From an uncultured Clostridia bacterium (GTDB taxonomy: Bacteria; Bacillota; Clostridia; TANB77; CAG-508), in the NCBI GenBank assembly GCA_963556905.1, contig CAUWAY010000003.1, forward strand, positions 920 through 64,919: a stretch of DNA of 64,000 bases, read 5' to 3'. Shown one piece after another: positions 19,034 through 30,000 of the stretch (positions within the stretch are counted from its first letter, which is position 1; the number at the start of each line of letters is the position of its first letter). The notes under the pieces were generated by a model that worked only from the letters and a program-made list of their open reading frames with translations, had not been told where the DNA came from and did no database searches. The translations under genes and the position numbers were made by a program.

Positions 19034-19427
19034 TTTCTACCTCCAGATAATCTTTTAACTTTTCAATAGCTTTATTTTTCAATTTACTCACTGCACTTTC
19101 AGTTATATTCATTCCATTTGCTATTTCTTTCAAATTTTTATTTTGGTAATAATACTGTATAATTACTTTTTTTTGTTTTTGAGTTAGCTTCTCTATTGCT
19201 CTTTCTAAATCTTCATTTTTACAGTCTTCTTCACTCAAAAAGGAATGAGTAAAATTGTCTACATTAGACAAAAATTCCCATTCCTCATTAGACATAGATA
19301 TTTCTTTATCTAGTAAGTATTTTTTATGCTTTAAATAATCAATTCTTTTATGTAATAATGCTATTCTCATATAATTTATATAATTAGCAAATACAATATC
19401 ATCTTTATATTCAATACTTTTTTCCAA
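19023..19427 (-). CDS. Sigma-70-family protein carrying regions 2.3/2.4 and 4 only (SigO-like subunit)
   Basis: 134 aa with a TTG start and a GGAGGT RBS. DDIVFANYINYMRIALLHKRIDYLKHKK is region 2.3-2.4-like. LTQKQKKVIIQYYYQNKNLKEIANGMNITESAVSKLKNKAIEKL is a region-4 HTH. Confidence 0.6.
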   Translation of the reverse strand: MEKSIEYKDDIVFANYINYMRIALLHKRIDYLKHKKYLLDKEISMSNEEWEFLSNVDNFTHSFLSEEDCKNEDLERAIEKLTQKQKKVIIQYYYQNKNLKEIANGMNITESAVSKLKNKAIEKLKDYLEVENEK

Positions 19428-19516
19428 TTTTTCTTACCTCCATTCAATTTTGTTTTTTATTGAACAGAGGTGGACTATGACAGCCACAACTAAAAAGTAA
19501 AAGAACGTTCATATAA

Positions 19517-19561
19517 AAAAAGAAGTCAATATTACTCTTTATAATCTTGACTTCTTTTTTT
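19517..19561. terminator. Palindromic rho-independent terminator upstream of the sigma pair
   Basis: AAGAAGTCAA-TATTACTCTTTATAATC-TTGACTTCTT with T-runs on both sides. Confidence 0.5.
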
Positions 19562-19951
19562 ATGTAATTATTGAAAAAAACTACCCCTCTTACTTTCACT
19601 AACATACTCCTTGTGTAGCGTAGAGTATGTACTTTGAAATAAATAGAACAACACTACACTAAAATATGATCTTATTTCACTTATCTTTGAGTAAATTAGT
19701 ATCTAGGTAGTTTATTTATTGGATTATTTTTTTCTAAAAATTAAAAACAAATATTGCTTTTGATTTTATCTTAAATTTATAACCCCTTTCCTTTCGTTTT
19801 TTGTACTTTCTTTTGTATTTACCTTTTTTGTTATATATTAACACTTTTAACACAAAAAATTTGTCGAAACTTGTAAAAGCACCAAATTTTTTTACAAAAT
19901 TTTACAACTTTCTTTTAATATTTACACTTTCTTATTCCTATAAATCACCTC

Positions 19952-19970
19952 TTGCACGATATTCGTGCAA
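19952..19970. promoter_or_regulatory. Operator palindrome TTGCACGA-TAT-TCGTGCAA (copy 1), overlapping the promoter of the XRE gene
   Basis: Perfect 8-bp inverted arms. A TATAAT sits 15 bp downstream, at 19985-19990. Confidence 0.5.
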
Positions 19971-20032
19971 GAAAATGAATTTTTTATAATAAAATTGGAA
20001 AAACTATATTTTAAAAGGAGGGAATGAGATAT

Positions 20033-20290
20033 ATGAAAACCAAAAGACTTAATTCTAAATCTAATATCATTGGAAAAAATGTAAAAAAATATAGAACAGC
20101 CAACAACTATACACAAGAAGAATTATGTCATAAATTAGACTTATTTGGTTTGAATTTATATCATTCTGATATTTATCTTATTGAATATAACAAACGAATT
20201 GTTAAAGATTATGAAGCTCTAGCTTTTGCTAAAGTTTTTAATATAAGTTTAGATGAACTTTATTCTGGAACAGAAAATGAATTAGAGTAA
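20033..20290 (+). CDS. XRE-family helix-turn-helix transcriptional regulator
   Basis: 85 aa from the second ATG (better RBS spacing). IIGKNVKKYRTANNYTQEELCHKL is a typical Cro/CI HTH. Confidence 0.8.
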   Translation: MKTKRLNSKSNIIGKNVKKYRTANNYTQEELCHKLDLFGLNLYHSDIYLIEYNKRIVKDYEALAFAKVFNISLDELYSGTENELE

Positions 20291-20303
20291 AAAATAATAA
20301 AAA

Positions 20304-20325
20304 TCCAGCTTTCACTGGATTTTTA
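20304..20325. terminator. Bidirectional terminator between convergent genes
   Basis: AAAAATCCAGCTTTCACTGGATTTTT. Confidence 0.5.
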
Positions 20326-20772
20326 TTATTTTTTGAAAAAGTTTACTATTTTTTTTATAATACTTTTTTCTTCAGTTAGTTTATTGTTAATTATTTCTTC
20401 TCTATCTTCTATTTGCGTAATTAATTCAATTTCATTAATTAGCTTTTCCATATCTACTGGTTTGCGATAGATATTTCTTACAGGTAAAGAATATAACTTT
20501 TTCATTACATCAGCACTAACACCTCCAGTAATAGCAATAAATTCTGGTACTTTCTCAAAGTCTTTTACAATTTCTATAACATCTACACCTGTTTTTTTAG
20601 GCATTTCTATATCAGTAATTACAACATCTGGAGAATATTGCATTATATATTTTAATTCTTCATCTCCATCATTTGCCACTCCAACTACCTCTATCTTATC
20701 ACTCTTTTTTATTTCATTTACAATATGTTCTAGTAAAACCTTATTGTCATCTGCTACAACTATTCTTATCAT
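20326..20772 (-). CDS. Stand-alone receiver (REC) domain protein, CheY/Spo0F-like
   Basis: 148 aa reading IRIVVADDN...PDVVITDIEMPKKTG...AITGG, with no output domain. Confidence 0.8.
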   Translation of the reverse strand: MIRIVVADDNKVLLEHIVNEIKKSDKIEVVGVANDGDEELKYIMQYSPDVVITDIEMPKKTGVDVIEIVKDFEKVPEFIAITGGVSADVMKKLYSLPVRNIYRKPVDMEKLINEIELITQIEDREEIINNKLTEEKSIIKKIVNFFKK

Positions 20773-20795
20773 AGTATTTTATCATCCTTTCTTTT

Positions 20796-20814
20796 TTGCA
20801 CGATATTCGTGCAA
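20796..20814. promoter_or_regulatory. Operator palindrome TTGCACGA-TAT-TCGTGCAA (copy 2), 24 bp upstream of the REC gene start
   Basis: This is an identical 19-mer to copy 1. Confidence 0.5.
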
Positions 20815-20832
20815 AAGTAAGCAAAAAAATTT

Positions 20833-21081
20833 TTATTTTGCTATTTTAAATATTTCTTGTATACATTTATCACATACTAAATGTCCTTTAAATTTTTTTC
20901 CTGCATTTTCACTATTACAAAATATACAATTTTCTACATATTTTTTTAATATTACTTTTTCTCCCTCAACAAATACTTCTAAAGGATCTTGCTCATAAAT
21001 CTCAAACTGACTTCTAATTTCTTTAGGAATTGTTATTCTGCCTAGCTCGTCAACTTTTCTTATAATTCCTGTACTTTTCAT
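20833..21081 (-). CDS. AbrB/SpoVT-family (swapped-hairpin) regulator with a C-terminal Cys4 zinc ribbon
   Basis: MKSTGIIRKVDELGRITIPKEIR matches the AbrB N-domain. The C-terminus has CIFC...CDKC. Confidence 0.75.
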   Translation of the reverse strand: MKSTGIIRKVDELGRITIPKEIRSQFEIYEQDPLEVFVEGEKVILKKYVENCIFCNSENAGKKFKGHLVCDKCIQEIFKIAK

Positions 21082-21179
21082 TTAATTACTCTCCTTTCAT
21101 AATTTTTCTTTATTATATATATTATACTATGTTTTCTCTCATTTTTCTGTCGAATTGTGTCATAAAAGCATAAAAACTT

Positions 21180-21292
21180 TACTTGAGTAAACTTTATTTT
21201 AAATTTTAACATATCTATTGTTTTACTTCAATAAACTACTTTACAAAAGTAAAGTTTTTTCAAAAACCTTTACTCGAGTAAATTATATTAAA
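21180..21292. promoter_or_regulatory. Cluster of three palindromes upstream of the second XRE gene
   Basis: The palindromes are TTTACTTGAGTAAA, CTTTACAAAAGTAAAG and TTTACTCGAGTAAA (perfect). A TATAAT lies at about 21307. Confidence 0.4.
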
Positions 21293-21318
21293 GTTACATC
21301 TTGCTATAATTTTTTTGG

Positions 21319-21564
21319 GTGAAAAAAATGAAACTTTCAGACGCTATAAGAAAAAGAATCAAAAATCTATTAAAAGAAAAGAATATGAAGCTATGGCATT
21401 TATATAAGAGAACTGGTATACCTATGTCTACACTTTCTGCTTTTATGAATGCTAAAAGAGAATTGCTCACTTTAAAAACTTTACTACATATTTGTGAGGG
21501 TTTTGAAGTTAGCTTGTCAGAATTTTTCCAAGATCCTTTATTTGATGATGTAGAACAAGATTAA
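21319..21564 (+). CDS. XRE-family HTH regulator
   Basis: 81 aa, KLSDAIRKRIKNLLKEKNMKLWHLYKRTGIPMSTLSAF. A terminator hairpin follows at 21569-21598. Confidence 0.7.
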   Translation: MKKMKLSDAIRKRIKNLLKEKNMKLWHLYKRTGIPMSTLSAFMNAKRELLTLKTLLHICEGFEVSLSEFFQDPLFDDVEQD

Positions 21565-21813
21565 AATAAAAACAATAGTTATTATGGCTATTGTTTTTAT
21601 TAATTAATAAATATAATTTGTATTATTCTTTAATATCTCTATTTATATGAGTTACATAAGTAACCGATAATGGCAAATAAATATGTTTATTCACTATAAT
21701 ATTTATTTTATTTGCTTCTTTACTAACTAAAATTACTTCATTAATTGCTTTGCTTATTTTAATTTTTGAATATAATATACTTATTGCATTATAAGTATAT
21801 CAATTACATCTTC

Positions 21814-22413
21814 TTCGCTATAACATTATAAATATGCCAGTGTTTCATTTTTCCTAATCCTGTCTTTCCATCTTTCTCAACTTCATTAAATTCTATTACT
21901 TCAAATGAGTTTTTAAATAATTCTAAAACTTGTTCTTTTGATAAAAACACCATTTGCTCTTTTACTTTTACCCATGAATCATTTAAACCAAAAAAATTTC
22001 CAACAAAGTAACCGTTCTTCTAAAATACTATCAGATATTTTATTCCAAAAGTCATTAAAATAATTTCTATTGCAAAATGGAATACTAAAATTAGCTACCA
22101 ATAAATTATTCTTCTCTAATTCTATATTTTCAAAATTTTGACACTTAAAATTAAATCTTTCTATTTCTTCATTGTCTAACTTACTGGTTATAAGTTCTCT
22201 AGTATCTTCTTTATCTATTGATAATACATTCCATCCGTTTTTTATTAAATATATTGTATCTCTACCTGCACCACACCCTAAGTCAACAGCATTTTTAGGT
22301 TTAATGTTCATATTTATAAATTTTTTAACCATTGGATGTGGTAAAGCATTTTCAGTATTTTCATAATATTTTTGTATATCTCCCATTAATATCAGTTCCT
22401 TTCCGTTTATCAA
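21814..22413 (-). pseudogene. TehB-like class I SAM-dependent methyltransferase, frameshifted at an A7 run near 22010-22020
   Basis: The N-terminal ORF has DLGCGAGRDTIYL (motif I). The C-terminal part ...KNGYFVGNFFGLNDSW... continues in another frame, to a stop at 21814. Confidence 0.55.
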
Positions 22414-22489
22414 CGATAATTATAACATATATTTCTATAAAAAGTAACAGGAGAGTGAAAATTTATTTTTTCACTCTCCTGTTGTGCTT

Positions 22490-23524
22490 TCAAAATTTTT
22501 TCCAGCACTGAGGATCTTTCGAATAAAAGTCACCAGTTAAACATTTGGCAACCGAAGGACAGCCTCTGCAAAAGTTCTTGATTTCACATTTGGAACAATG
22601 TTCGAACTTATCATACTGACGATATTTTTCCATTTCTTCTCCAGTAAAAATATCGTAGAAAGACTGTTCCGGAACTTTGCCAACAGGAGTTTCACTTCGT
22701 CTACAGGCATATACTGTTCCATCTGCCAAAGTTGTAATGTGGGTAATTCCACAATGACATCCATCAAGAACAAGGTCATTAGGATTGTTGACTTCCTCAG
22801 GATTAAATAATCCCTTCTCATAAAGATACAGTTTCCAAAGGTGGTCTTTTAATGCAAACCTTGTATCACATTCTTGGTTCTGCATATACTTTTCCCACAT
22901 TTTGTCCAGAAAATTTCTATATTCTTCTGGGGAAACCATCAAATCGAAGTCTTCTGGATTAGGACAATATCTTGCAAATCCAAAATTGCTAACTTTGTGT
23001 TCTACAACAATGTCTACCAGTTCCGGAATTTCCGCAATATTTGTCTTGGAAACGGTTGTCATAATAGCTGTTTTGATTTTGCTTCCCTCGAAATACTTTA
23101 ACGCATCTAAGGTCGCATCAAACGAGCCAGTTTTACGAATATAATCATGAGTTTCTTTCAATCCATCTAATGACATCTGAAAGTTAATACACCCTAAATC
23201 TTCCAGTCGTTTAACTACATCATAGTCTAAATGAAACGGATTGCCCAAAAGTCCGAAATGAACCTTCTTTTCTTTAAGGATTTCAAGGAAGTCCCAAATT
23301 CTTTCATAGAGCAACGGATCTCCACCTGTAATCACAAGAAAAGGATCTCTTTCCAGTTTATCACATGTCTGGAGAAAGTTCTCCAAAATTAATTTTAATG
23401 TGTCTAAATCGAGTTCAAGACCACATTTCTTGTCTTTTCCTTCATAGATGTAACAATGTTTACACCGCTGGTCACATCTGTCTGTAATATGCCATTGCAT
23501 ACTAAATTTCGTTCTTTCTGCCAT
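22490..23524 (-). CDS. Radical SAM / SPASM-domain peptide maturase
   Basis: CDQRCKHCY (CxxxCxxC) lies near the N-terminus. A C-terminal Cys cluster CSKCEIKNFCRGCPSV indicates a SPASM domain. The likely start is MAERTKF at 23524, with RBS AAAGGAGGA. The region is about 40% G+C against about 25% for flanks. Confidence 0.8.
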   Translation of the reverse strand: MAERTKFSMQWHITDRCDQRCKHCYIYEGKDKKCGLELDLDTLKLILENFLQTCDKLERDPFLVITGGDPLLYERIWDFLEILKEKKVHFGLLGNPFHLDYDVVKRLEDLGCINFQMSLDGLKETHDYIRKTGSFDATLDALKYFEGSKIKTAIMTTVSKTNIAEIPELVDIVVEHKVSNFGFARYCPNPEDFDLMVSPEEYRNFLDKMWEKYMQNQECDTRFALKDHLWKLYLYEKGLFNPEEVNNPNDLVLDGCHCGITHITTLADGTVYACRRSETPVGKVPEQSFYDIFTGEEMEKYRQYDKFEHCSKCEIKNFCRGCPSVAKCLTGDFYSKDPQCWKKF

Positions 23525-23547
23525 TACAAATCCTCCTTTTAGTGCAA

Positions 23548-23572
23548 GAGGCACCTCTAAAAGAGATGCCTC
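23548..23572 (-). promoter_or_regulatory. 10-bp hairpin between the precursor and maturase genes (possible attenuator)
   Basis: GAGGCATCTC-TTTTA-GAGGTGCCTC on the mRNA strand, between the precursor stop (23633) and the maturase RBS. Confidence 0.35.
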
Positions 23573-23632
23573 TGCTTTGTTGAAACTAATGTGTGTTGTC
23601 GACACTACACATTCTTAGTTCATCTCTCTGTA

Positions 23633-23848
23633 TTAGCTACAAGATGTACTACAAGATGTGCACGATCCACAAGAACTACTGCATGCCGAGCAACCGCTTG
23701 AGCAGTTACAGGAGCAATCTGCAGCAACTACTTTGACTCCAGCTCCAACTAATTTAGCCTTTGCAGACTTCATAAAGTTCTGAGCAGAGTTCTTCCCAAT
23801 GTAGTTTACACTAGGATTCCAATAATTTGTCCGTGTCATTTTGCTCAT
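23633..23848 (-). CDS. Cys/Ser-rich RiPP precursor peptide
   Basis: 71 aa. The leader is MSKMTRTNYWNPSVNYIGKNSAQNFMKSAKAKLVGAGVKVVAAD. The core is CSCNCSSGCSACSSSCGSCTSCSTSCS (9 Cys in 27 residues). The RBS is AGGAGAA. It lies directly upstream of the rSAM gene and shares its elevated G+C. Confidence 0.65.
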   Translation of the reverse strand: MSKMTRTNYWNPSVNYIGKNSAQNFMKSAKAKLVGAGVKVVAADCSCNCSSGCSACSSSCGSCTSCSTSCS

Positions 23849-24065
23849 AGTGTGTTCTCCTTTCTGTTAAATTTCAACGAGTTGCTTGGAACAATAATTA
23901 CTGCTCCAAATAATACATAAAAATGTACTACGGTTACATAATATCATATTTGGAATAATTTGTCAAGTTTATTCTGCAAATAAAATCCTATCCGTATTAC
24001 TAATGTTTATTCTAAATATAGCTATTATCTAATTTAAAATTTATTTGAACATAGCTAATTATATT

Positions 24066-24281
24066 TTACACATTCTTTATAAATGTTTCTAAAATATTAG
24101 AATATTGATTACTTAATTTAGGTATATCTCCATTTTTAGAACTATGTAACATTATAAATTCTTCTATGCTTCTTTCACATTTTCTTATTTCTTCTTTGCT
24201 ATAATCTCTATCTTCTACATTTATTCCTGCTTTTTTTAGCAACTTGATTTCTTCATTTCCAAATTCATTTTTTAAGTTCAT
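24066..24281 (-). CDS. Hypothetical small protein
   Basis: 71-aa ORF with no recognised motif. Confidence 0.35.
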   Translation of the reverse strand: MNLKNEFGNEEIKLLKKAGINVEDRDYSKEEIRKCERSIEEFIMLHSSKNGDIPKLSNQYSNILETFIKNV

Positions 24282-24296
24282 CTTTATTTTTCTCTC

Positions 24297-24560
24297 CTAT
24301 TCCTTAATTGCAACTAATAATTCATTGTCTTGTACTACTTTTTGTTGTTCTTTATATGTAAATCTTGCACCAGTAAAAAATACTTTATAATCTAAATTTT
24401 CTAATCTCGTTTTGCATAAAGCTAAAAATTCATCTGTTTGTTCTTCAGTTAGGTTATGTTTTATTCTTAATTCATAAAAAGTAAAGATAATTTTATTTTG
24501 CTCTACATTCATCTTGCTATTTATAAGTTTTTCTACAAATTGTGTTGTCATTGTTTTCAC
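24297..24560 (-). CDS. Hypothetical small protein
   Basis: 87-aa ORF with no recognised motif. Confidence 0.35.
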   Translation of the reverse strand: MKTMTTQFVEKLINSKMNVEQNKIIFTFYELRIKHNLTEEQTDEFLALCKTRLENLDYKVFFTGARFTYKEQQKVVQDNELLVAIKE

Positions 24561-24866
24561 TCCATTTCAATTTGAATTATAGCACTTATTCTTTGTTTTG
24601 TCTTTAAAAATCACAAAATAATAATAGAAATGATACTCATTATTTCTAACAAGTACCATTCCAATCTATTTTTTTATTTTTTCCTATAAATCACTTTATT
24701 TATTTGCCATTCTTCAATTTCTCTTTTATCTATCGTTTTCCCTTTATCATTTACTATTTCTGCATAATATTTATTCCTTTTGTATATTTCTAAAATGACT
24801 GCCTTATTTTTATCATTTAATTCTACTACATCAAACTTCTTTATTTTCATACTCTATCACATTCCT

Positions 24867-26487
24867 TTATTGATATGCCGGTGTTCCATAACCTAAAATA
24901 ACACTACTTCCAACATCATACACATTTTGTTTACACATATCTCCTCTAGTATTTCCTTCAATAGTATAAACTTTATTATTTTCTACTTTTTCTACAATAC
25001 CAACATGATCTGCTTTTCCATCATTTGAATCTGCCCAATCGAAGAAAATTATATCTCCGTGCTTTTGGTATATATCCTCTACTTTGCCATAATTCGCAAG
25101 TCTTAAACCAAGCAACTCCCTCACTTTCACATCCTGCAAATTTAGGTATTATTCCTGCCTCAATATAACCACATTCATTAGCACAAAAACTGACAAAACA
25201 AGCACACCATTCAACCCTAGATGAAAATCCATACCAACTCCAAAATGGTTGACCACCTATATTTCCTATATATTGTTTCGCCACTTCTACTATATCATTA
25301 CTACCTGCTGAAGAACCATATAACATATATGACCACATTGAATTATATTCTTCCTTTTGTAGTTCAGCAAGTTGTTGTTTTTGTTTTATATTCAAATTAT
25401 ACAATTCTATCATTTCTTGTACTGATTTACTCTTTACATCAATATGTAGCATTTTTATTTTTTTCTTTTCTTTTTTTATATTTCCGTTTTCATCTGTTGT
25501 TTCATATTCTTTTTCTATTTCACTTACACTTGAAGTTATTATATTCATTTTCCAGAATATTTCTTTAAGCTTGCCAATCTTATTATCATCTAATGTAATT
25601 ACATCTGTTTGTTCCTCTCCATTGCTTATTATTACGACATATAGTGAAATAATATCTTTCCACTCTGCTTTATTAGAACTGATCTGATACTCATTGTGTT
25701 CCGTATTTTTTTGAATATCTGCTATTTTATTTGTAAATTCTGTATTAAGTTCTCTTATAACAGAGCTCATTGTTTTTTCTCCTACATCTTTTTCATTTGA
25801 AAAGAAGATTCCAAAAATAGATGTGCATATCATAGCAATTAAGCAAATAACTATAATTACTACTACTGCCACCCAACCTCCTGCAATAATTGCTGAAATA
25901 AGTGCCTTTGTTGCCATAATTATAGCTTTTATTATTGCTATTGTTGTTTTTATTGCTATCTTTGTTGCTTGTATTGTAGCTTTTACAGCTTGTTTTGTCA
26001 TTTTTGCTGTTCTTTGAGCTAGTTTTACACTATTTTTTACCACTTGTTTTGTTGTCTTTATTGTTGTTTTTGCTGTTTTCCTTGTTGCTTTTACTGTATT
26101 TCTTGCTGATTTTACTGTGTTTTGAACTTTTTTTATACTTCTTTTTGCTTTGTTTATTGCAATTTTTCCTTTTTGTTTTACATTCTTTATTCCTTTCTCT
26201 GCCTTTTTTATTTGAGTTTTACCCTTTTTAATATTTTCTATTGTTTTTTGAAAATTTTGCTTTCCCTTTCTGTTTAATTGTGGTGTATTATATATAATAT
26301 CTTTCATTACACTATTTGCTTTGTTTTCTGCATATTCTTGTGCTGTATTTTCATTTTTTTCATAATTTTCTTTTGTTTTATCTCTTACACTTATTATATT
26401 TGATTTTAGGTTTTGACCTACTATCGTTGATCTATTAAGTTTCTTTATACTGGTTTCTTGTTTTTTCTTTGTTTTTATATCTGCCAT
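24867..26487 (-). pseudogene. Conjugation-associated cell-wall hydrolase with C-terminal CHAP domain, frameshifted near 25066-25072
   Basis: A Lys-rich repeat region is followed by a TM segment. The CHAP Cys region WCACFVSFC lies in one frame. GDIIFFDW...DHVGIV...TIEGNT lies in the next frame. Restoring one base gives PKAGDIIFFDW. The likely start is MADIKTKKKQ, with a GGAGGAA RBS. Confidence 0.7.
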
Positions 26488-26489
26488 TT

Positions 26490-27245
26490 CTATTCCTCCA
26501 ATTCTGTTTTTATTTTTTTTGCTACTACTACTAATCGCCCATCTTTGTTGGAATATTCGCAAGTAGATAATGTTATAAGTTTATCGCCATATTTTGCTGT
26601 ATTTTTTGTTTCATAAAAAGAAAGTTCTTTACATTTTTGTATAAATGTATCGAACTCCTGCTTTGAACTACTATTTACAAATTTATAATATTCAAAACCT
26701 GTATATGCAACTGTTTTAAATACTGCAACTATCTCATAATTTGCATTTTCATTTATTGTATTGAAACTTATTATTTTATGACTTTTATAAAATTCTTTCT
26801 TTTTATATTTTTCTAATTCTCCAAACATTTGATTATTCTTAATATGATGACCATATATAATAACATTATCACTTGTTTGTATATTACAATATTCAGCAAT
26901 ATAAGGTGTTCCTAATTGTGAATATTCTTTGTAAAAATTTTTTCTTAAATAATAATCTTTTCTACTATTTTTTGTCTGCATAACAGGATAACTTATATTT
27001 GTATTTTCTATTTTTAACCAACCTACAAAATCATTATTCAATTCATATAATTTTTTGAAATTTATAGTTTCTTTTTTTTGTTCTTTTTGTTCTTCTTCCC
27101 TGCTTTCTGTAATAATATTTTCTAGTTCTTCAAAAACTTCGTTTTGTTTTTTATCTTCTTTATAATTAATCATTATATAACTAATGCTAGTAACTAAACT
27201 AGCTACTAGCATTATAATTAAAAAAATATAGAACTTTTTATACAT
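26490..27245 (-). CDS. Class B sortase
   Basis: 251 aa. It has a signal/TM anchor, His (IIYGHH), the catalytic Cys in LSTCEY, and a conserved Arg (RLVVVAKK). Confidence 0.8.
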   Translation of the reverse strand: MYKKFYIFLIIMLVASLVTSISYIMINYKEDKKQNEVFEELENIITESREEEQKEQKKETINFKKLYELNNDFVGWLKIENTNISYPVMQTKNSRKDYYLRKNFYKEYSQLGTPYIAEYCNIQTSDNVIIYGHHIKNNQMFGELEKYKKKEFYKSHKIISFNTINENANYEIVAVFKTVAYTGFEYYKFVNSSSKQEFDTFIQKCKELSFYETKNTAKYGDKLITLSTCEYSNKDGRLVVVAKKIKTELEE

Positions 27246-27259
27246 ATTTCTACCTCTTT

Positions 27260-29591
27260 CTATATAACTTCATTTAATTTTGTTGTCATTAATTTATAAA
27301 GTTCAGTATCTTTTGGGAATTTATTTATAAAAGGTATCAATGAATTTCCTATCTTTAATAGTCCGTGTCCTGCCTCAACATTTGTTATAAAGCTTAACTG
27401 TTGATCTGATATATTAAGTAATTTTGCAAGTTCTATTCTATCTGTACTTGCTTGATTAAGCATTATAATCAATTCACTATTAGCAAGCATTGTTCTTGCT
27501 AAATCACTTCTCAATAAATCTTCCACATTTTGTGTAATACCTGTACAACAAGCACCATATTTTCTAACTCTTTTCCATAAAGTAAAAAGGAAGTTAGCTG
27601 AATATTCATATTGAAATAATAAATATATTTCATCAATATAAATATATGTGCTTCTTCCTTTTTGTCTGTTTGCTGTTATTCTATTAAATATACTATCTAG
27701 TATTACTAACATTGCAATAGGTTGTAATTGTTTTTTTAATTCTAATATATTATAACAAACTAATCTATTGTGAATATTTACATTTGTTTGTTTTGCAAAA
27801 GTGTTCAGACTACCATTACTAAATAATTCTATTGCTAATGCTACATCTTTTGCCTCTTTCTCATTTTGTTTTAGTAATTCTTCTCTAAAATCTTTTAATG
27901 TTGGTGGATCTCCCTCATAATCGTTATCTTGATATTTTTTATATACATTTGCTGTACATCTATCAATTATTGATCTTTGCTGTGGCTCTAATGCTTTTCC
28001 CATTAATTGCTCACATAATGAAAGTACAAACTCTGATTTTAGCACTATTGGATTTGCATTATCTCCATAAAATTTATTCATATCCATTGCATTTATATGA
28101 TTTTTACTTGTCGAAGATATTTCTACAAGTTCTCCTCCGAGTTCTTTTACAAGTCCTGCAAATTCATTTTCTGGATCAATTATTATTATATCTGCGTCTT
28201 TTTCTTTTAACATTATTGAGCTTATTTCTTGTTTTGCTGTAAAACTTTTTCCACTACCAGAAACTCCAAGTATAAAACTATTTCCATTTAGCAACTGTTT
28301 TCTATCTAGTAATATCATATTTTTTGAAATTGCATTTTGTCCATAATATATTCCGTTTAGGATGTTGTACTTCTTGTACTTTAAAAGGCATAAATACTGC
28401 TAGACTTTCTGTTGTTAATGTTCTTAATGTTTCTATTGTTTCTATTCCAATAGGTAATGTTGTGTTTAGTCCATCTAGCTGTTGAAACCTTAATATGCCA
28501 AACTGACACAAATTTTTTCTTGCTGTTGTTAATATTGTCTCTGTTGTGTTTTCAAGTTCTTTCTCTGTATCTGCAATAAATACTACTGTAATTAATCCTA
28601 AAAACATACGCTGATCTCTTGTCATTAAATCATTTAAGAAATCTCTTGCTTCCTGTTCTTGTTGTTCCATATCAAATGGAACTGATGCAAAAAAATTATT
28701 ATTTTCGCTTTGTTTTCTTATATAATTTGCTTTATTTGTTTCTACTCCTAGCAATATTCGTTCTGCGTCTTTTATTGCCTCATCTGTTGCTACTGGAGTT
28801 ATATCTATTGTTAATGTTAAGTTTTTGCTAATGTCTGTTAACTCTGCTATCATACTATCTTTTATAAATGAGGCATATTCTTTTAGAAATATTACTCTAC
28901 CAAATTTATCTCCCATTTTAAAGTAATCCTTTTTAAACTCAAAACTATCTGGACATATATAATCTTTGAAACTGTGTCCTTTTTGCATATTGTCTATCAT
29001 ATCAAAATTAAAACTACTTTCCTCTCCTATTCTATAAAAGTTATGTAGCATTTTTAATCTTTCGTTTGAATCTAATTCTATACAAATTGAATTTAACTTT
29101 TTAAAGTGTTTATTTAATTCTAATGCTATTCTTCTAAAAGCCGTTCGTGCCTCATCCAAGTTTTTCTTTTTTATAGTTATTGTTATATATTTTTCTTGCA
29201 CAATTCCGTTACTTGTTTTTGCCCCCTCATCAATTAGCCTATTATATTCACTTCTTAATCTGTCAAGTCTGTCTTTTTCATTTTCTATCTTAATGTTATT
29301 TTCTATATTTTGTTCATTCATTTTACTATTTAATATACTAATTTTTACAAGCATTTCGCATTCAAAAGAATTAAGTATCTGCATATAATCTAAAAACATT
29401 GACTCTTTATCTTCTTCACTTGCTACTATATAGTTAATATCTGTAAATTTAAAAGTCTTTGAATATTTGTTTTTACCTACTAGAAATACTCCATCTCGCC
29501 ATATTCTCTTTACTGGTATAACATCTTGCACACCTTTTGGAATTATATATTTTTCCTTATCTTTTTTGAATAAATCAAATAATCTAAACAT
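27260..29591 (-). pseudogene. VirB4-like conjugative ATPase (Tn916 Orf16/TcpF-like), split by a frameshift at about 28302-28318
   Basis: The 429-aa N-terminal part and the 352-aa C-terminal part overlap by 17 nt. The C-terminal part carries Walker A, GVSGSGKSF. A T6 run lies at the junction. Confidence 0.75.
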
Positions 29592-30000
29592 TTTTTGCCC
29601 TCCTTTTTCCTTTTCTGTTCTTTTTTTCTTTCTTATTTTGCTTTTCTTTTTTGTTCTTCTTTCGGTCTTTTTCGCATTGCCTATACATATCTAAATATAA
29701 ATTATTAGGTTTGAAGACTAATTTTTTAGGTGTTAATATCTCAGATTTAATCCAAGCTATTAAAAATTTTTCTGCTGTCATTCCGTTATATTTTGCAAAT
29801 CCTAATAATGCAAAAGGAACTGCACCTGCCATACATAGCCACGATACAGTTCCTGTATTATTAAATATTGGTTTTGATATAAAATATATTCCTACTGCTA
29901 CAATGCAAGCTAATGTCGAACATATAAATTGCCTCATTGTCAGTCCAAAAAATATATTTTCTTTGTACTGTCTTATTTCTTTGTTTATCTTAACTTCCAT
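29584..30000 (-). CDS. Small conjugation membrane protein (TcpE/Orf17-like, VirB3-like)
   Basis: 138 aa with two TM helices and a Lys-rich tail. Its position is directly upstream of VirB4. Confidence 0.45.
   Translation of the reverse strand: MEVKINKEIRQYKENIFFGLTMRQFICSTLACIVAVGIYFISKPIFNNTGTVSWLCMAGAVPFALLGFAKYNGMTAEKFLIAWIKSEILTPKKLVFKPNNLYLDMYRQCEKDRKKNKKEKQNKKEKKNRKGKRRAKNV

Follow-up and report, generated by a model that had tools for sequence, protein, structure and literature searches.

A mobile cassette in a gut Clostridium with a Cys-rich candidate precursor peptide, a radical SAM/SPASM maturase of the ACGX family and a TehB-like methyltransferase carrying a conserved +1 frame change

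The DNA analyzed here (the window) is a stretch of 64,000 nucleotides from an uncultured Clostridia bacterium (contig CAUWAY010000003.1, positions 920 to 64,919). Between 21804 and 23966 its minus strand carries a gene for a small Cys-rich peptide, a gene for a radical S-adenosylmethionine (SAM) enzyme with a SPASM domain, and a TehB-like methyltransferase gene that is read in two frames. On balance we consider it probable, if by no great measure, that this cassette as a whole is a self-contained, horizontally mobile three-gene module for a peptide made on the ribosome and modified after translation (a RiPP), carried as cargo of an integrative conjugative element (ICE) in a gut Clostridium of ~27% G+C. 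Its features, in the direction of transcription, are as follows.

23938..23966, minus: cassette promoter, TTGACA and TATTAT 17 nt apart; the -10 box has a TG upstream
23886..23931, minus: structured 5′ leader whose consensus fold (13 sequences) has two hairpins, at 23910-23931 and at 23886-23909
23633..23848, minus: precursor gene, 71 amino acids, leader MSKMTRTNYWNPSVNYIGKNSAQNFMKSAKAKLVGAGVKVVAAD, core CSCNCSSGCSACSSSCGSCTSCSTSCS
23588-23613, minus: second intergenic hairpin
23544..23575, minus: intergenic hairpin between the precursor and maturase genes, 11-pair stem
22490..23524, minus: radical SAM/SPASM maturase, 344 amino acids, TIGR04340 (ACGX system); open reading frame (ORF) as listed, 22490..23605
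22446..22483, minus: intrinsic terminator downstream of the maturase gene, a 16-bp stem and then a T-run
21804..22386, minus: TehB-like class I SAM methyltransferase, 193 amino acids by way of a +1 frameshift
22012..22014, minus: proposed site of the +1 frameshift, where an extra C 5′ of GGT (Gly) gives a zero-frame CGG

The extent of the cassette was determined by BLAST comparison of the window with related loci in many differing contexts. The block common to them ran from 21803 to 23966-23985. In a comparison with a dozen loci in different contexts, similarity ended exactly at the -35 box of the promoter on the 5′ side and exactly at the stop codon of the methyltransferase gene (21804) on the 3′ side, and no terminal repeats were present. 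The conserved unit (21804-23966, 2.18 kb) contains the precursor, the maturase and the methyltransferase genes. A preliminary description of this DNA had counted two genes in 1.4 kb, which is too few by one; the methyltransferase fell outside its compositional boundary because the G+C content of that gene is host-like (G+C at third codon positions, GC3, 0.15–0.21).

The maturase was assigned by profile search, and a defined radical SAM subfamily was found for it: the ORF scored 466 bits against TIGR04340 (curated cut-off 400; E = 7.4e-140), with residues 33-370 aligned to positions 2-340 of the 341-position profile. Pfam matches were Radical_SAM (76.6 bits) and SPASM (36.5 bits). Translation likely starts at the ATG at 23524, behind the ribosome-binding site AAAAGGAGG. 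The CxxxCxxC motif occupies residues 17-24 and therefore leaves no room for an N-terminal RRE domain. Among 24 homologs C17, C21, C24, C256, C258, C274, C310, C313, C319, C322 and C340 were invariant and C328 was nearly so (90% or more). The next NCBIfam families scored below their own cut-offs (SbtM 184, AhbD 123, NirJ 107, PapB 77 and SkfB 59 bits). The AlphaFold model (predicted local distance difference test, pLDDT, 88) has a plain radical SAM-SPASM fold, to which the closest solved folds in a search of the PDB were SuiB and anSME (template modeling (TM) scores 0.72–0.75) and SkfB (TM 0.60), at 16%–20% identity. The family is large, with 3317 homologs at E ≤ 1e-20 and 1054 members in the 90%-identity cluster of the window enzyme. 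The name "ACGX system" is used in a few NCBI records, a literature search for ACGX system, TIGR04340 and TIGR04341 found no paper, and to our knowledge the system is defined in silico only. One candidate homolog, a 454-amino acid fusion of an ammonium transporter to the radical SAM enzyme in two metagenome assemblies (L002, 6001-7365; P0001 and P0003), was set aside as most likely an assembly chimera; its two parts meet in a peptide that they share, GAMAER.KF, and the stretch similar to the window begins exactly at the radical SAM ATG.

The precursor core CSCNCSSGCSACSSSCGSCTSCSTSCS contains 9 Cys separated by spacers of 1–3 Ser, Thr, Gly, Ala or Asn residues. Spacing by such small residues had been described before, with spacers of up to four residues, a length that does not occur. 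The core matches neither the SCIFF nor the CxxxD pattern, in agreement with the preliminary description; it contains no ACG triplet, has no Asp or Glu after any Cys, and the gene has no in-frame UGA or UAG. No NCBIfam or Pfam family was matched by the precursor, the only NCBIfam entry reported up to E = 10 being TIGR04117 at E = 0.09.

For comparison, one genome per species was scanned, which yielded 80 loci, and the DNA upstream of each enzyme was read for precursors. The loci split cleanly into two types by the identity of their radical SAM enzyme to that of the window:

Type A, radical SAM enzyme at most 54% identical: 34 loci with a recognized precursor; classical ACGX peptides, e.g., MALSNVAEFAG..SACGSACGAGDK, with C-x3-D in every unit
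Type B, radical SAM enzyme at least 57% identical: 40 loci of 42 with a precursor; leader long and basic (..TNYW..V.Y..K.SAQ.F..), core hypervariable and Cys-rich

The type-B precursor family is present in 40 species-level gut genomes. An ORF with a ribosome-binding site is kept directly upstream of the enzyme in those 40 of the 42 type-B loci, and the type of precursor switches in step with the enzyme clade. Across 23 members the type-B leader keeps W10 without exception and has Y16, A22 and Q23 conserved to 90% or more. In the cores (e.g., CSCNCSSGC.., CGGGCGGGCIGGCGGGC and SECESGCNNSCGTACASGCTDF) Cys alone is conserved, with small residues at its flanks, which fits modification local to each Cys; many cores terminate in C-x-D-x-[YF]. 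Read from the alignments, a kept leader joined to a variable core is the standard RiPP signature, and its recurrence across 40 loci bears out the earlier proposal of a RiPP-type precursor paired with a radical SAM/SPASM enzyme. TIGR04341, the model of the ACGX-repeat peptide (cut-off 28 bits), gave no match at E up to 10 to the window precursor or to four other type-B precursors; a classical ACGX peptide, run as positive control, scored 50.8 bits against that cut-off. By these profile searches the enzyme family is already catalogued and the precursor family is unmodeled. A HMMER search of 1.84 billion representative proteins returned ~7 true precursor clusters, and the family therefore appears small there and mostly uncalled by gene finders. 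Two hits of this search were spurious (P0124 and P0129; one a repeat protein, one a eukaryotic thrombospondin-like protein). The exact window precursor was found on 12 metagenome contigs, with flanks that match the window where present. In L001 (5144-5902; radical SAM enzyme 84% identical), two tandem precursors of 58 and 66 amino acids with differing cores each have their own promoter and copy of the 5′ leader.

The cassette resembles the ACGX system (TIGR04340 plus TIGR04341) in an enzyme that scores above the family cut-off, a minimal radical SAM-SPASM architecture, hosts among gut Clostridia, and a small precursor directly upstream with repeated Cys flanked by small residues. It differs in its long, basic TNYW/SAQ leader (the classical leader, MALSNVAEFAG, is short), in a contiguous C-x1-3-C run in place of ACGxACGxxD units with charged linkers, in the distinct clade of the type-B enzyme (at least 57% versus at most 54% identity to the window enzyme), in the linked, frameshifted methyltransferase described below, and in its foreign G+C content and residence in mobile elements. 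In the classical peptides (L044-L082) the close of each repeat unit, C-G-x-x-D, has the form C-x3-D, which PapB cross-links in freyrasin. The enzymes of the two clades, though of one family, may thus work on cores built on quite different principles.

The composition of the cassette was compared with that of the whole window and of the related loci. The G+C content of 22440-23900 was 37.4%, against a mean of 27.2% (standard deviation 2.8) for all 1461-nt intervals of the 64 kb, and is essentially equal to the highest such interval (37.7%, at 22447). GC3 was 0.375 for the precursor gene and 0.322 for the maturase gene, versus 0.13–0.14 for neighboring genes. The stretch is therefore compositionally foreign, as had been proposed, and the difference is highly significant; its G+C content is ~37% and not the ~40% first estimated. 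Type-B enzyme genes averaged 0.334 G+C against 0.263 in their flanks, with the gene exceeding its flanks by over 5 points in 24 of 36 loci, whereas type-A genes (0.415 versus 0.402) showed no mismatch. These values suggest that type-B cassettes descend from a donor with higher G+C content. Since 24 of the 36 related loci show it, the excess points to a long-standing trait of the lineage in low-G+C hosts and not to a recent event in this genome, so that of the "recent acquisition" first suggested the foreign composition stands and the recency does not.

Several conserved nucleic acid elements accompany the genes. The promoter was the best sigma-70 match of the region (11 of 12 positions). In the consensus fold of the 5′ leader, 8 of 18 pairs showed compensatory changes, among them a pair of the second stem that is CG in 6 and UA in 6 sequences, and A-U to G-C changes in L009 and L014. 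The two leader hairpins could be an operator (palindromic and overlapping +1) or an RNA stabilizer. A search of 21000-24600 against Rfam gave only chance matches far below gathering scores, and none for the 5′ leader; no regulator gene lies within the cassette. The hairpin reported earlier between the precursor and maturase genes is real, with a stem of 11 pairs and not 10 bp, and compensatory changes were present in 8 of the 11 pairs (16 loci); the intergenic region folded with a minimum free energy of -34.2 kcal/mol (z = -4.75). No U-run follows this hairpin in the window, so it is not a canonical terminator; it is probably a partial terminator or a processing and stability element. The terminator at 22446-22483 is strong and stands between the radical SAM and methyltransferase genes.

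In the mechanism that we propose, the strong promoter would drive the structured leader RNA and the precursor gene, and the conserved hairpin would, by analogy with other RiPP operons, limit read-through into the maturase gene. The maturase would recognize the leader (TNYW...V.Y..K.SAQ.F) without an RRE domain and modify the core Cys residues by means of 5′-deoxyadenosyl radicals and auxiliary Fe-S clusters. As to the chemistry, our first candidate, held with less than even confidence, is an SbtM-like reaction in which, by analogy, hydrogen would be abstracted from the Cys β-carbon and cyclization onto the preceding carbonyl would yield several thio-oxazoles. It was chosen because SbtM is the nearest characterized family, because SbtM acts on a Cys that follows a small residue, and because only Cys is conserved in type-B cores. 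SbtM turns Gly-Cys into a thio-oxazole via hydrogen abstraction from the Cys β-carbon (Bandarian laboratory, PMC9204691), and the Cys or selenocysteine (Sec) of its substrate SbtA follows a small residue (Gly-Cys), like the Cys residues of the window core. The 184-bit match to SbtM (TIGR04082) extends over the whole radical SAM-SPASM region of the enzyme. The thio-oxazole product would be a soft-metal-binding peptide kept in the cell, and chelation of metal inside the cell would account for the absence of exporter, protease and immunity genes, for a TehB-like partner and for carriage on mobile elements. A functional analogy can be drawn with bufferins and methanobactins, RiPPs in which Cys-derived heterocycles bind copper and which act against metal stress; these thio-oxazole or oxazolone-thioamide metallophores are made by MNIO enzymes (PMC11626156), a class unrelated to radical SAM enzymes, and their peptides carry signal peptides and are periplasmic or secreted. 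For the cassette, the analogy depends on the thio-oxazole model.

A number of points weigh against this chemistry. The SbtM score is far below the family cut-off of 350 bits and covers profile positions 197-515 only, and the N-terminal domain (profile positions 1-196), the first 195 residues of SbtM, is absent from the window enzyme, which places it outside that family; AhbD and NirJ, with unrelated chemistry, score 100–120 bits. The core has 9 Cys and no selenocysteine, versus two sites in SbtA, and the hosts are Clostridia, versus Geobacter and Desulfobacteria. The fold search leaves the possible chemistries undistinguished. Characterized SPASM enzymes that act on Cys-rich peptides mostly make thioethers. 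What the sequences show is the gene set, the enzyme's family, the contrast of leader and core, the RNA elements, mobility, linkage, and the coding pattern around the frameshift discussed below; the chemical steps, how efficiently that shift would occur and what the module does for its host are inferred.

The chief alternative, which we also hold at less than even confidence and only slightly more tentatively than the thio-oxazole model, is that the maturase forms intramolecular thioether bridges from Cys sulfur to the α, β or γ carbon of Ser, Thr, Gly, Asn or Ala residues close by, and that the product is a ranthipeptide or sactipeptide with a role as a signal or antimicrobial, in the manner of SCIFF peptides or bacteriocins. 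Radical SAM/SPASM maturases paired with Cys-rich precursors are a general precedent, and a single SPASM maturase with a Cys-rich core is also what ranthipeptides such as those of SCIFF/CteB and freyrasin/PapB have. SCIFF systems often lack a linked protease or exporter, as does the cassette, in agreement with the preliminary description: no protease or exporter is adjacent in the window and none recurs beside the 40 related cassettes. The sactisynthase SkfB was among the closest solved folds, and the C-x-D-x-[YF] ending of many type-B cores is in keeping with thioether formation. So is the strict C-x3-D of all classical ACGX cores, since the PapB substrate carries a thioether-linked CX3D motif (PMC9413430), and this likeness also tells against the thio-oxazole model. 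However, the families that make thioethers score far below SbtM (PapB 77, SkfB 59 and StsB 58 versus 184 bits), the enzyme is not of the PapB type (NF047865; cut-off 340 bits), and no SCIFF model was among its best 25 NCBIfam matches, all of at least 55 bits. The window core lacks CX3D/E and SCIFF motifs, and none of its Cys residues is followed by Asp or Glu as a possible acceptor; in cores such as CGGGCGGGCIGGCGGGC nearly the sole acceptor on offer is Gly. Across the type-B cores no position for an acceptor has been kept, and an RRE domain is missing from the enzyme. Some chemistry other than these two is unlikely.

The third gene of the cassette encodes a class I SAM methyltransferase whose coding sequence reads in the window as two ORFs, the frame-0 product being 135 amino acids long. 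Codons 1-124 lie at 22386-22015, C 22014 is skipped, and codons 125-193 and the stop codon lie at 22013-21804; the predicted trans-frame junction peptide is ..DSILEE-GYFVGNFFGLNDSWVK.. The Pfam TehB match covers the N-terminal part; once the frame is corrected, residues 6-168 of the protein align with TehB profiles without a break at the junction. At 46–47 bits after frame correction it falls short of the equivalog cut-off for the tellurite-resistance methyltransferase TehB (NF008405/TIGR00477, ~218 bits), and we call it TehB-like in fold, not an equivalog. At 31 of the 42 type-B cassettes the methyltransferase gene lies alongside, whereas at the 39 classical ACGX loci it is never found there; its linkage to type B is therefore specific. 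It usually lies downstream of the cassette, and upstream in L025, L031 and L033-L035. Free thiolates or chalcogen compounds may be its substrate; this is a guess.

The change of frame recurs in an identical form. A single extra C was present at the same position in the window and in 23 related loci (L001, L003-L007, L009, L011-L018, L021, L022, L031, L033-L035, L042 and L043), which represent 23 distinct sequences down to ~50% amino acid identity, and tblastn found the same frame change in 3 further loci. In each, 124 N-terminal codons are followed by the extra C and then by GGN TAY TTT.. in the +1 frame (NNN-C-GGN). The zero-frame codon at the site is always CGG, while the P-site codon varies (GAA, GGA, GAT, GAG, GGT or AAT), so that no slippery codon is needed. 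Intact relatives differ solely by the missing C (TTA AAA GAT|GGA TAT versus TTA AAA GAT C GGA TAT). Coding constraint was assessed on the frameshifted sequences only. Variability at the three codon positions was 0.246/0.138/0.423 upstream of the site and 0.076/0.044/0.338 downstream of it in the +1 frame, and the ratio of synonymous to non-synonymous differences downstream was 811:394 when read in the +1 frame, against 48:1268 for frame 0 and 191:1206 for frame +2. Judged from these patterns, both halves are under purifying selection, each in its own frame. Secondary stops or indels were absent from both halves except in L008 and L013. In sampled host genes CGG makes up 0.5–0.6 per 1000 codons and 1.4%–1.6% of Arg codons.

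These comparisons indicate that the methyltransferase gene probably contains a programmed, or at least a selected and tolerated, +1 frameshift. Full-length protein would be made only when ribosomes shift +1 at the rare CGG (NNN C GGN), and the need for this shift implies that the enzyme would be scarce or that its level would follow the supply of tRNA. Three other origins of the split were examined and rejected. A sequencing error was rejected because independent assemblies and diverged sequences share the split, and transcriptional slippage because the site has no homopolymer. Internal re-initiation to give a two-piece enzyme was judged unlikely, since the 17 codons that separate the site from an internal Met show +1-frame selection, four loci lack this Met, and the frame-0 stop varies in position by locus, from 5 to 33 codons downstream.

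The site resembles those of glass-sponge mitochondria, in which +1 frameshifting occurs at a rare zero-frame UGG or CGG codon where T or C is inserted 5′ of GGA (Atkins et al. review, PMC5009743). Shared with this glass-sponge and Ty3-type "hungry codon" shifting are a single pyrimidine 5′ of a GGN Gly codon, a rare zero-frame CGG and the lack of a slippery P-site codon. Unlike the sponge sites, that of the window is in a bacterial gene on mobile elements, and only cassette-linked copies have it, stand-alone paralogs being intact. CGG is known to be unassigned or reassigned in low-G+C Firmicutes (PMC8629427).

Each of the three cassette genes contains exactly one CGG codon. That of the precursor gene is at Arg6 (23831-23833), before TNYW, and is CGG in ~22 type-B precursors. 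That of the maturase gene is at Arg20 (23465-23467), within CDQRCKHC, and is CGG in 29 of 41 loci and never CGA, CGT or CGC. A +1 slip at either codon would truncate the product, the opposite of the effect in the methyltransferase. From these counts, selection for CGG at Arg6 and Arg20 is a weak lead; CGT is kept at another invariant Arg in 24 of 41 loci, so shared ancestry may explain the pattern.

Against a working third gene it could be held that the module has two genes only and that the methyltransferase is a hitch-hiking frameshifted pseudogene, overwritten repeatedly by recombination with intact host paralogs. We consider this unlikely, with several observations pointing its way and so counting against the three-gene module. 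Intact paralogs of 65%–85% identity are plentiful; three of their contexts were inspected, and in each the gene stood by itself, with no radical SAM gene close by; cassette-linked and stand-alone copies interleave in a neighbor-joining tree; and 11 of 42 type-B cassettes lack the gene. With its host-like G+C content, its own transcription unit past the strong terminator and its similar paralogs, the enzyme may have a general cellular job and not one in peptide tailoring. The trans-frame protein is a prediction from the nucleotide sequence, and gene conversion from intact paralogs could mimic purifying selection. Conversion could inflate the apparent constraint, yet it leaves the retention of the extra C unexplained, since conversion tracts would be expected to erase it. 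Instead the single C persists in 23 sequences to ~50% identity, also where the gene is upstream of the cassette, with a strong coding pattern in the frame of each half, secondary lesions in L008 and L013 alone, and no linkage to classical ACGX loci.

Two further alternatives to the three-gene RiPP module are very improbable. That the small ORF is a chance frame, with the enzyme acting on a cofactor or protein, draws on the scores of AhbD and NirJ, tetrapyrrole enzymes that rank next after SbtM among the named families, but is contradicted by the ORF and ribosome-binding site upstream of the enzyme in 40 of 42 loci with conserved leader and variable core, by the tandem precursors of L001, each with promoter and leader, and by the way in which precursor type tracks enzyme clade. 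Least probable of all is the CLI_3235-type pairing of a clostridial Cys-rich bacteriocin with a radical SAM maturase (TIGR04065/TIGR04068), raised in the preliminary description: the likeness, a small Cys-rich peptide beside a radical SAM gene in Clostridium, is superficial, the enzyme passes the TIGR04340 cut-off instead, and no CLI_3235 model was matched by the enzyme among its best 25 or by the precursor at E up to 10.

The cassette is a compact, promoter-to-terminator member of the large, unstudied ACGX family, with chemistry that could be tested with two or three genes and a precursor family that current annotation models miss. In the sources searched, no description was found of the precursor family, of its linkage to the methyltransferase or of the frameshift. 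It is possible, and as a joint proposition rather doubtful, that the cassette represents an undescribed RiPP class that spreads on ICEs and mobilizable elements among gut Clostridia of very low G+C content, with a TNYW leader and a poly-Cys core that an ACGX-clade enzyme turns into a multi-thio-oxazole or otherwise sulfur-modified intracellular metal-binding peptide, together with a methyltransferase gated by a +1 frameshift at a near-unassigned CGG codon. The methyltransferase is a rare bacterial candidate for programmed +1 frameshifting outside prfB, with an unusually clean comparative signature, and would, if confirmed, be a bacterial counterpart of the glass-sponge mitochondrial mechanism. 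Its CGG site would be a natural system for learning how vanishing codons get exploited; were the codons at Arg6 and Arg20 also under selection, CGG might tie all three genes to the supply of tRNA-Arg(CCG), as bldA and TTA do in Streptomyces.

The surroundings of the cassette were annotated to place it in the genome. The window is chromosomal, with DnaG, [FeFe]-hydrogenase, histidine kinase and two tRNA genes at 1–13 kb and a penicillin-binding protein gene at 57.6 kb. Judged from gene content, the cassette sits in the accessory and regulatory end of an ICE of ~40 kb (approximately 14619-55000), with recombinase and conjugation genes inside these chromosomal bounds:

14619-16181: large serine recombinase
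27260-28318, 28302-29591 and 29584-30000: conjugation ORFs, of the same lengths and in the same order as on contig L083
50305-54408: SpaA-repeat adhesin, 1367 amino acids

Other genes of the element encode a sigma-70 region-4 protein, a receiver-only response regulator, AbrB-like and XRE regulators, a sortase, a CHAP-like peptidoglycan hydrolase and a type IV secretion system (T4SS); on L083, which is near-identical, the VirB4-like, PrgI and TraG/T4SS-DNA_transf families were recognized. Megablast of 17000-30000 against plasmid and phage collections gave no match. No empty site of a cassette-free element was found, exact look-ups of the flanking small proteins (21319-21564 and 24297-24560) being without records. 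Other type-B cassettes are flanked by Mob_Pre (8), phage integrase (4), TnpV (3), RepA_N (2) and Recombinase (2) families; ABC transporters accounted for only 3 of 131 flanking ORFs, and no protease recurred. The cassettes are common in human and farm-animal gut metagenomes, on conjugative and mobilizable elements, and the product therefore likely matters for fitness in the gut, where metal stress, signaling and competition are possible routes.

Two minor features of the surroundings were also recorded. In the window, a large membrane protein whose C-terminus is CHAP/NlpC-like (24867-26562) is encoded by two overlapping ORFs (25021-26562 and 24867-25139), through a frameshift or as a pseudogene; the longer ORF had no Pfam match. 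In L043 (1492-2487, on a 367-kb contig) a tyrosine recombinase gene lies immediately upstream of the cassette promoter, between ABC-transporter genes.

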